This document shows, one piece after another, positions 14,487 through 19,406 of a DNA stretch of 64,000 bases. Below the pieces are notes generated by a model that saw only the letters and a list, made by a program, of their open reading frames with translations, made no database searches and was not told the DNA's origin. Location: positions 32,001 through 96,000 of IMG/VR virus record IMGVR_UViG_2706796291_000001; one strand, written 5' to 3'. The position numbers and the translations under genes were made by a program. Position 1 is the stretch's first letter; every line of letters starts with the position of its first letter. Source of the DNA: a virus (Duplodnaviria > Caudoviricetes).

Positions 14487-14524
14487 AGTTTGACTGACAA
14501 GGAAAAGTCAATAACACCCAATCA

Positions 14525-14647
14525 CTATATATATGAGTGCGTGGTCAGCAGAGTAGCTGGTATAGAAGATTAACCAAGTTCCGTTCAATGATTGGTCACT
14601 TGGGTGAAAAATGATGTAGCCCCAAAGAAAACAGCTTATGTATATAG
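14525..14647 (+). ncRNA. Unnamed structured RNA, copy A
   Basis: 13-bp closing stem ctatatatatgag/cttatgtatatag; shares GAGTGCGnGGTCAG, CAAGTTCCGTTCAATG and AGAArACAGCTT with 19456-19607. Confidence 0.7.
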
Positions 14648-14652
14648 ATTTA

Positions 14653-14788
14653 TATGTCGTTAGTCGTGGTTGACTGATTCAGTAGCTTGATAGATGATTT
14701 TTAATGTATGATGAGACAATTTTGTAAAGGATTCTGAATTATTAATCGGAGAGTGAAAAATTTTGCAGGTTCGATTCCTGTCGGTGTA
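14653..14788 (+). ncRNA. tRNA-like element with expanded anticodon arm
   Basis: T-arm gcagg-TTCGATT-cctgt, weak acceptor tatgtcg/cggtgta, D-like hairpin ttagtc/gactga. Confidence 0.5.
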
Positions 14789-19019: not shown

Positions 19020-19364
19020 GGGGATGTAAAGGTTTCGACAGACTATGGCAGTCTTAAATCACATTCCGACAAGGACAGTCGTTAAAACCAAACTAAATAT
19101 AATTGCAAACACTCAATTAGCCGTAGCCTAAGCTACAAAAAAGTTTAAGTAATTAAACAGCTAGAAACTGATTCGTCTGGTAGGTTTCTAGTACAAACAG
19201 ACGTGTGATGGATTCTGATAAGTCACAGATAACAATCAGAACAGCGTTAGTGGATAGTTGTTTATTCAAGAAACTAATAATGTCTATCAAATGAATAAAC
19301 TATGAATGTAAGAAAGTTTAAGATATGTATAGTTTGGACGCGGATTCGATTTCCGCCATTTCCA
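19020..19364 (+). ncRNA. ssrA: tmRNA; tag (A)ANTQLAVA* at 19105-19131
   Basis: 5' GGGGATGTAAAGGTTTCGAC, G3-U acceptor, ataattGCA resume context, 3' GGACGCGGATTCGATTTCCGCCATTTCCA. Confidence 0.9.
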
Positions 19365-19406
19365 TCATGTTTTTAAAACATATTTAAAAAACATATTACT
19401 TTATAC

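Follow-up and report, generated by a model that had tools for sequence, protein, structure and literature searches.

A probable family of structured non-coding RNAs in the tRNA islands of Lactococcus 949-group phages

The role of structured RNAs in phage tRNA islands is a long-standing question, and most candidates of this kind come from uncultured phages. The window analyzed here, a stretch of 64,000 nt from IMG/VR record IMGVR_UViG_2706796291_000001, contains two intergenic loci about 5 kb apart (copies A and B, Table 1) with common short blocks of sequence embedded in stems of different sequence. Do both loci encode the same RNA and, if so, what might this RNA do for the phage?

Two related loci in the tRNA island of a 949-group phage

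The window belongs to a 130,008-bp Lactococcus phage genome (Audreyjarvisvirus). Around copy B, its sequence matches Lactococcus phage AM1 at 100% identity and is close to phages 949, P1048, LW81, and phiL47, which places the window phage in the 949 group. A first-pass annotation had described three ordered blocks common to A and B, along with three stem pairs that differ in sequence between the copies but keep their pairing; all of them are present where it had located them. The 16-nt block common to both copies is found at 14575 and 19546 and nowhere else in the window. By itself this block is weak evidence, as the 130-kb genome contains 64 direct repeats of at least 16 nt; among ~1,970 random pairs of equal-sized stretches, the longest common run was 14 nt. 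A covariance model trained on five B-type sequences, with copy A left out, retrieved a single further match in the genome, namely copy A (E-value 5.5e-6). Compared with the initial description, the closing stem is longer by one pair on its inner side (U.G in the window, U-A in Enterococcus phage EFP01).

Neither copy contains an open reading frame over 20 aa. In Rfam 15, which includes riboswitches, small ribozymes, RNase P, SRP, 6S, YrlA, GOLLD, ROOL, raiA, and AbiF, neither copy gives a match at the gathering score or at an E-value up to 10. For the long form of the RNA (see below), the only Rfam match is a miRNA (E-value 1.4), far under its cut-off. These null results and the strong covariation among homologues support the initial proposal of an uncatalogued, conserved structured RNA. 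Copies A and B are thus very probably two copies of a single conserved structured RNA, best explained as a pair of diverged genes encoding one stable non-coding RNA that acts in trans.

Table 1. Positions of the two RNA copies, their parts, and neighboring elements in the window.
Feature	Position	Strand	Remark
Small hairpin, A-rich loop	14495-14510	+	just 5' of copy A
ncRNA copy A, short form	14525-14647	+	123 nt
Copy A closing stem	14525-14538/14634-14647	+	
Copy A 5' core block	14539-14544	+	
Copy A first arm	14545-14549/14556-14560	+	
Copy A A-rich block	14567-14572	+	
Copy A short helix	14573-14575/14594-14596	+	
Copy A middle core block	14579-14593	+	
Copy A variable arm	about 14600-14624	+	
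Copy A 3' core block	14628-14633	+	
tRNA-shaped RNA	14653-14788	+	read by eye; starts 5 nt past copy A
tmRNA	19020-19367	+	
Sigma-70-type promoter	19407-19434	+	12/12 consensus match, extended -10, 16-nt spacer
ncRNA copy B	19456-19607	+	152 nt
Copy B closing stem	19456-19465/19598-19607	+	
Copy B 5' core block	19466-19471	+	
Copy B first arm	19472-19477/19495-19500	+	
Copy B optional arm	19503-19510/19528-19535	+	no counterpart in copy A
Copy B A-rich block	19538-19543	+	
Copy B short helix	19544-19546/19564-19566	+	
Copy B middle core block	19550-19563	+	
Copy B variable arm	19574-19590	+	
Copy B 3' core block	19592-19597	+	
tRNA-Asp	19612-19682	+	starts 4 nt past copy B
Skipping-rope RNA (RF02924)	19685-19763	+	directly behind tRNA-Asp
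Non-coding, hairpin-rich stretch	19765-20500	+	

The RNA sits in tRNA/ncRNA islands in all lineages. The island of the window phage also holds tRNA-Met, -Arg, -Asp, and -Pro, a tmRNA, and a skipping-rope RNA. The promoter at site B, strong as judged from its consensus match, ends 21 nt upstream of copy B. Sister phages without copy B have this promoter too, where it precedes other RNAs or, in phages L47 and PMBT69, directly tRNA-Asp. Copy A is followed by a tRNA-shaped RNA with acceptor, D, and T arms, a ~50-nt insert replacing the anticodon loop, and a long variable region. Neither ARAGORN nor Rfam calls this element. All eight aligned 949-group phages retain it, among them those whose copy A is broken. 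Homologues of the RNA stand before tRNA-Asp, -Glu, or -Leu, and the gap from the 3' end to a following tRNA or tRNA-shaped RNA is 4-11 nt in the window, in EFP01, and in most long-form loci. The link to the tRNA is nevertheless loose, given the arrangement in L47 and PMBT69, the loss of the adjacent tRNA-Glu with retention of the RNA at locus L142, and a terminator-like hairpin (with ~60 more nt in three cases) between the RNA and tRNA-Leu at loci L140 and L354-L357.

Several neighboring elements were observed alongside. The tRNA-Asp of the window is diverged (48 bits, versus 66-70 bits in 949 and P1048), and the tRNA copy behind the RNA in EFP01 is degenerate as well. The tag of the phage tmRNA ends in AVA, and phage 949 has an HNH gene at this place instead. 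The skipping-rope RNA occurs in a genome without a DUF3800 gene. Between this RNA, tRNA-Pro, and the next gene, the non-coding stretch contains tRNA-like segments, with T-arm-like words near 20320 and 20430, and gives weak Rfam scores only. A hairpin with an A-rich tail ending in ACC/CC (14495-14518) is separated by 10-20 nt from the mature RNA that follows. Similar hairpins are found ahead of the RNA in L140 (about 391-417) and L354-L357, and one with a flipped stem (GAC/GUC versus GUC/GAC between lineages) precedes tRNA-Leu in L133-type loci; the hairpin is possibly a processing or 5'-protection element. The promoter slot of site B and the stretch preceding it hold other uncatalogued hairpin or tRNA-like RNAs in AM4, LW81, phiL47, and PMBT69 (L014 10660-10812, L017 12400-12700, L015 10500-10735, and L016 16470-16765), a pattern that resembles an exchange of RNA cassettes between promoters and tRNAs that stay in place.

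Covariation and the predicted core

Covariation was assessed over 16 aligned copies and 42 proposed pairs. The first-pass annotation had made its claim of a non-coding RNA dependent in part on covariation among homologues, and the homologues do covary: 24 of the 42 pairs show double-sided compensatory changes. In total, 97.8% of the alignment cells pair, a value equaled by no shuffle and compared to 36-48% in slid-partner controls. These figures lean to the favorable side because the alignment was fitted to a model already holding the nested stems and because the sequences are related; the two core helices were outside that model. Compensatory pairs are distributed over six helices, specifically the closing stem (7/10), the first arm (4/6) and its extension (4/6), the optional arm (5/8), a 3-bp helix pairing GGY with RCC, or ACY with RGU in some A copies (3/3), and the 4-bp core helix UGUC/GACA (one pair, in a single lineage). 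The plus strand is rich in G.U pairs.

Three short invariant blocks are set amid arms that are free in length or missing. The second arm is missing in A, the last arm is missing in the long form, and the latter has ~120 additional nt within its arms. Strong conservation extends over about 26 nt at the middle block, in which one central position takes C, A, or U. A pseudoknot between GCGnGG in the 5' block and UCCGU in the loop, also proposed in the first-pass annotation, is possible in each of the 16 aligned copies, but none of its five pairs shows any variation, and its predicted pairing probability is at most 0.09; the pairing itself is therefore plausible, while covariation does not speak for it. 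Forcing this helix costs 0.2-7 kcal/mol in nested folding, so that it would need tertiary support. One indirect hint in favor of the pairing comes from copy A of AM1, in which the middle block is deleted and the 5' block has five substitutions in nine bases.

The core helices are thus predicted from invariant pairs plus one compensatory pair from a single lineage. If both helices form, the model predicts a three-way junction of the closing stem and the two core helices, with the 3-bp helix as a cross-link. The invariant blocks would then zip into two short helices of one compact, pseudoknotted core, with A-rich linkers packing against it.

Distribution, loss, and the search for a partner

BLAST and pattern scans identified 20 distinct full-length versions of the RNA (about 120-285 nt), which fall into four groups. 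The first group (B-type, about 155 nt) comprises the AM1 group, P1048, and 949, while the second (A-type, about 120 nt) comprises AM4, AM5, phiL47, PMBT69, and IMG/VR locus L114. The third (B-like) contains EFP01 and one relative, along with L140 and L354-L357. The latter elements appear to be linked to Lactococcus, since L354 also holds Lactococcus chromosomal-type genes. The fourth group (long form, about 280 nt) is found in uncultured elements (L133, L135, L136, L139, L142, and L335-L344) with contigs of up to 338 kb, either jumbo phages or giant plasmid-like elements. All ten loci of large uncultured elements fetched via a neighboring gene contain the RNA. Outside these groups, the scans returned little. 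Among the matches listed for the IMG/VR pattern scans, there were just 949-group and EFP01-type copies, and wastewater contigs contained strain variants only. A pattern scan of 185,579 GTDB species genomes gave 17 matches, many within sugar-transferase-like coding sequence and none with the other blocks and the closing stem, and no match was found in the PLSDB plasmids.

Further conserved sequence was noticed around some of these loci. Several hundred conserved non-coding bases lie upstream of the RNA in L336 (10720-11550, no Rfam match) and L355 (8265-8500), probably representing further ncRNAs. In L140 and L354-L360, large elements of either sort, tRNA-Leu is followed by a tandem family of predicted membrane proteins of ~170 aa that belong to no PHROG family.

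Within the 949 group, the window phage has both copies. Phages AM1, P1048, and 949 have an intact B and a site-A copy from which the core was removed by two different deletions, leaving the closing stem in place. AM4, AM5, L47, and PMBT69 have an intact A and no B. Neither copy is found in LW81 or in the 92%-complete record behind L256, and a wastewater contig shows an LW81-like deletion as well. This pattern indicates that one copy is usually kept, yet that the RNA is dispensable. As read from these genomes, which represent few independent lineages, the RNA is an accessory gene with one intact copy in most sister lineages and none in two.

A comparison of the window phage with EFP01 bears on the question of a partner. 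The RNA is 87% identical at the DNA level to copy B over 114 nt, whereas the proteins shared by both phages are 26-54% identical and none of them is located beside the RNA. The RNA therefore seems to travel without a protein gene, and its partner, if any, is probably made by the host, unless the RNA has an activity of its own. Consistent with this, no phage-encoded partner protein was found. Genes for a reverse transcriptase (PF00078), Ro60 (PF05731), and DUF3800 are absent from both the window phage and EFP01, and no loci were found by following Thg1. A nearby AAA ATPase was considered and rejected as partner, since 40 other viral records with a relative show no match to the RNA, phages with a broken RNA retain the ATPase, and the protein is widespread without the RNA. 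No host RNA that could be mimicked was found in Rfam or in the species-genome pattern scan. Possible duplexes with the phage's own tRNAs and tmRNA are gapped, in a comparison that had no control.

Candidate functions and comparison with known RNAs

Phage tRNA islands are generally viewed as a means to counter host attacks on translation. In our preferred reading, which is tentative, cleavage of the tRNA transcript yields a stable RNA that engages a host factor, serving as a decoy or helper. This RNA would be transcribed together with the tRNA island, at site B from a promoter of its own, and host RNase P would free it by cleaving the following tRNA or tRNA-shaped RNA at its 5' end. Such a 3' end is likely given the proximity of the RNA to tRNAs and standard tRNA processing: the cut at the 5' end of tRNA-Asp would set the 3' end of copy B, and the tRNA-shaped RNA likely supplies that of copy A. 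The core may then present the surface to which this factor binds, the likeliest candidates being RNA-binding proteins that act in translation, RNA decay, or anti-phage defense. This accessory RNA gene would help on some hosts only. The conserved core with its free periphery, the covariation, the island setting, the movement without a protein gene, and the accessory pattern all agree with a host-directed decoy or helper, for which pseudo-ToxI offers a precedent (PMC3475682). Conversely, the search for a partner gave none, and variable arms around an invariant core suit a ribozyme or a small-molecule aptamer equally.

That the core is instead a new ribozyme active site, or a stand-alone aptamer pocket soaking up a host alarm or immune signal, is doubtful, but would make the RNA a counter-defense device passed between phages and large extrachromosomal elements. 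Taken separately, a new ribozyme class, either self-cleaving or processing the tRNA-island transcript, is unlikely. It would agree with a small invariant pseudoknotted core carrying replaceable arms, and theta ribozymes are tRNA-linked in phages too (PMC10879173), but these are proposed to trim 3' trailers, while our RNA is found on the 5' side of tRNAs, a site already cleaved by RNase P. In addition, L47 and PMBT69 do with tRNA-Asp behind the promoter and no RNA, no Rfam ribozyme family matches, and the neighboring skipping-rope RNA, similar in character, did not self-cleave (PMC5737381). The RNA does resemble riboswitch aptamers in its A-rich linkers, its invariant bases centered on a junction, and a core that secondary-structure energy alone would leave unstable. 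A free-standing aptamer that sequesters a nucleotide, cofactor, or immune signal is nonetheless quite unlikely, as no riboswitch family matches, the RNA never forms the 5' leader of a protein gene and lacks an expression platform, and natural RNAs that act on their own as sponges for small molecules are not known to us.

An RNA-only scaffold or multimer resembling the ROOL/GOLLD nanocages would share their setting, being accessory, with no protein partner known, in the tRNA islands of Lactobacillales phages (10.1101/2024.12.08.627333). We consider it improbable because the RNA is far smaller, matches neither Rfam family, and is least conserved in precisely those peripheral loops that would make intermolecular contacts. 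A cis element stabilizing the downstream tRNA or aiding its processing is similarly improbable. The short distance to tRNAs and tRNA-shaped RNAs and the closing stem retained in broken site-A copies are in line with such a role, yet the downstream RNA differs (Asp, Glu, Leu, or tRNA-like), can be lost (L142) or set apart by a terminator-like hairpin (L140, L354-L357), and is present in sister phages without the RNA. The conserved middle block could also suggest antisense pairing to host or phage mRNA. This is very improbable: most of that block, initially described as a loop, is predicted to pair within the RNA, its central position varies, and no perfect complement over 10 nt is reported in the phage genome. 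Equally remote is a DNA-level site or chance repeat, despite the many other repeats in the genome, in view of the compensatory changes in six helices, the G.U pairs, and the promoter and tRNA context.

The host-factor reading and its alternatives can be approached in cultured phages. The RNA is small, has a covariation-supported fold, and occurs in phages of Lactococcus lactis, a tractable dairy host. Natural variation provides the test set, namely phages with just one of the copies (A or B), with both, or with neither, plus two distinct deletions of the core. The RNA therefore offers a direct experimental handle on the function of tRNA-island RNAs and is possibly a new catalytic or ligand-binding RNA.

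Among known systems, several likenesses were dropped by eye since the shared short words pair differently, namely the conserved regions of RNase P, pistol, the lysine, ppGpp, and M-box riboswitches, 23S helix 71, and the sarcin-ricin loop. The core words are present in no relevant text among the papers searched, although the 10,006 viral RNA candidates of PMC10690425 might include the motif unnamed. Unlike cis-regulatory riboswitches, the RNA precedes tRNAs or other ncRNAs in every locus examined. Retron msr-msd RNAs likewise begin with a long closing stem immediately followed by a G and a stem-loop, but our RNA lacks a conserved long hairpin template toward its 3' end, and the phages have no reverse transcriptase. 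It differs from Y RNAs by the absence of a Ro60/TROVE gene, a T arm, and a YrlA match. Pseudo-ToxI of phage PhiTE, a phage RNA blocking a host defense, is a functional analogy only, as an accessory phage ncRNA with an H-type-like pseudoknot and a possible decoy role (PMC3475682). Type III antitoxins form tandem arrays of short pseudoknot repeats, whereas A and B are two single copies; with its 120-285 nt and paired ends, the RNA is unlike any known antitoxin.

The closest counterparts are found in tRNA islands themselves. Theta (HDV-like) ribozymes are also small, pseudoknotted, and directly beside phage tRNA genes (PMC10879173), but on their 3' side, whereas copy B follows a promoter, and the helix order of our RNA is not the HDV nested double pseudoknot. 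The skipping-rope RNA (RF02924; PMC5737381) is small, highly conserved, structured, and encoded in the same transcript unit; our RNA differs from it in sequence and fold, is closed by a long stem, and has no fixed neighboring protein. GOLLD and ROOL are likewise pseudoknotted, accessory RNAs near tRNA islands of Lactobacillales phages with no protein partner known (10.1101/2024.12.08.627333; PMC5737381). The tRNA-island location is common to all three, but ROOL and GOLLD have several hundred nt (659 and over 800 nt) and consensus folds that our RNA does not share, and conservation in the latter is limited to a small core without any sequence or model match to them. The RNA thus apparently represents a new family of a known broad kind, the structured ncRNAs of phage tRNA islands.
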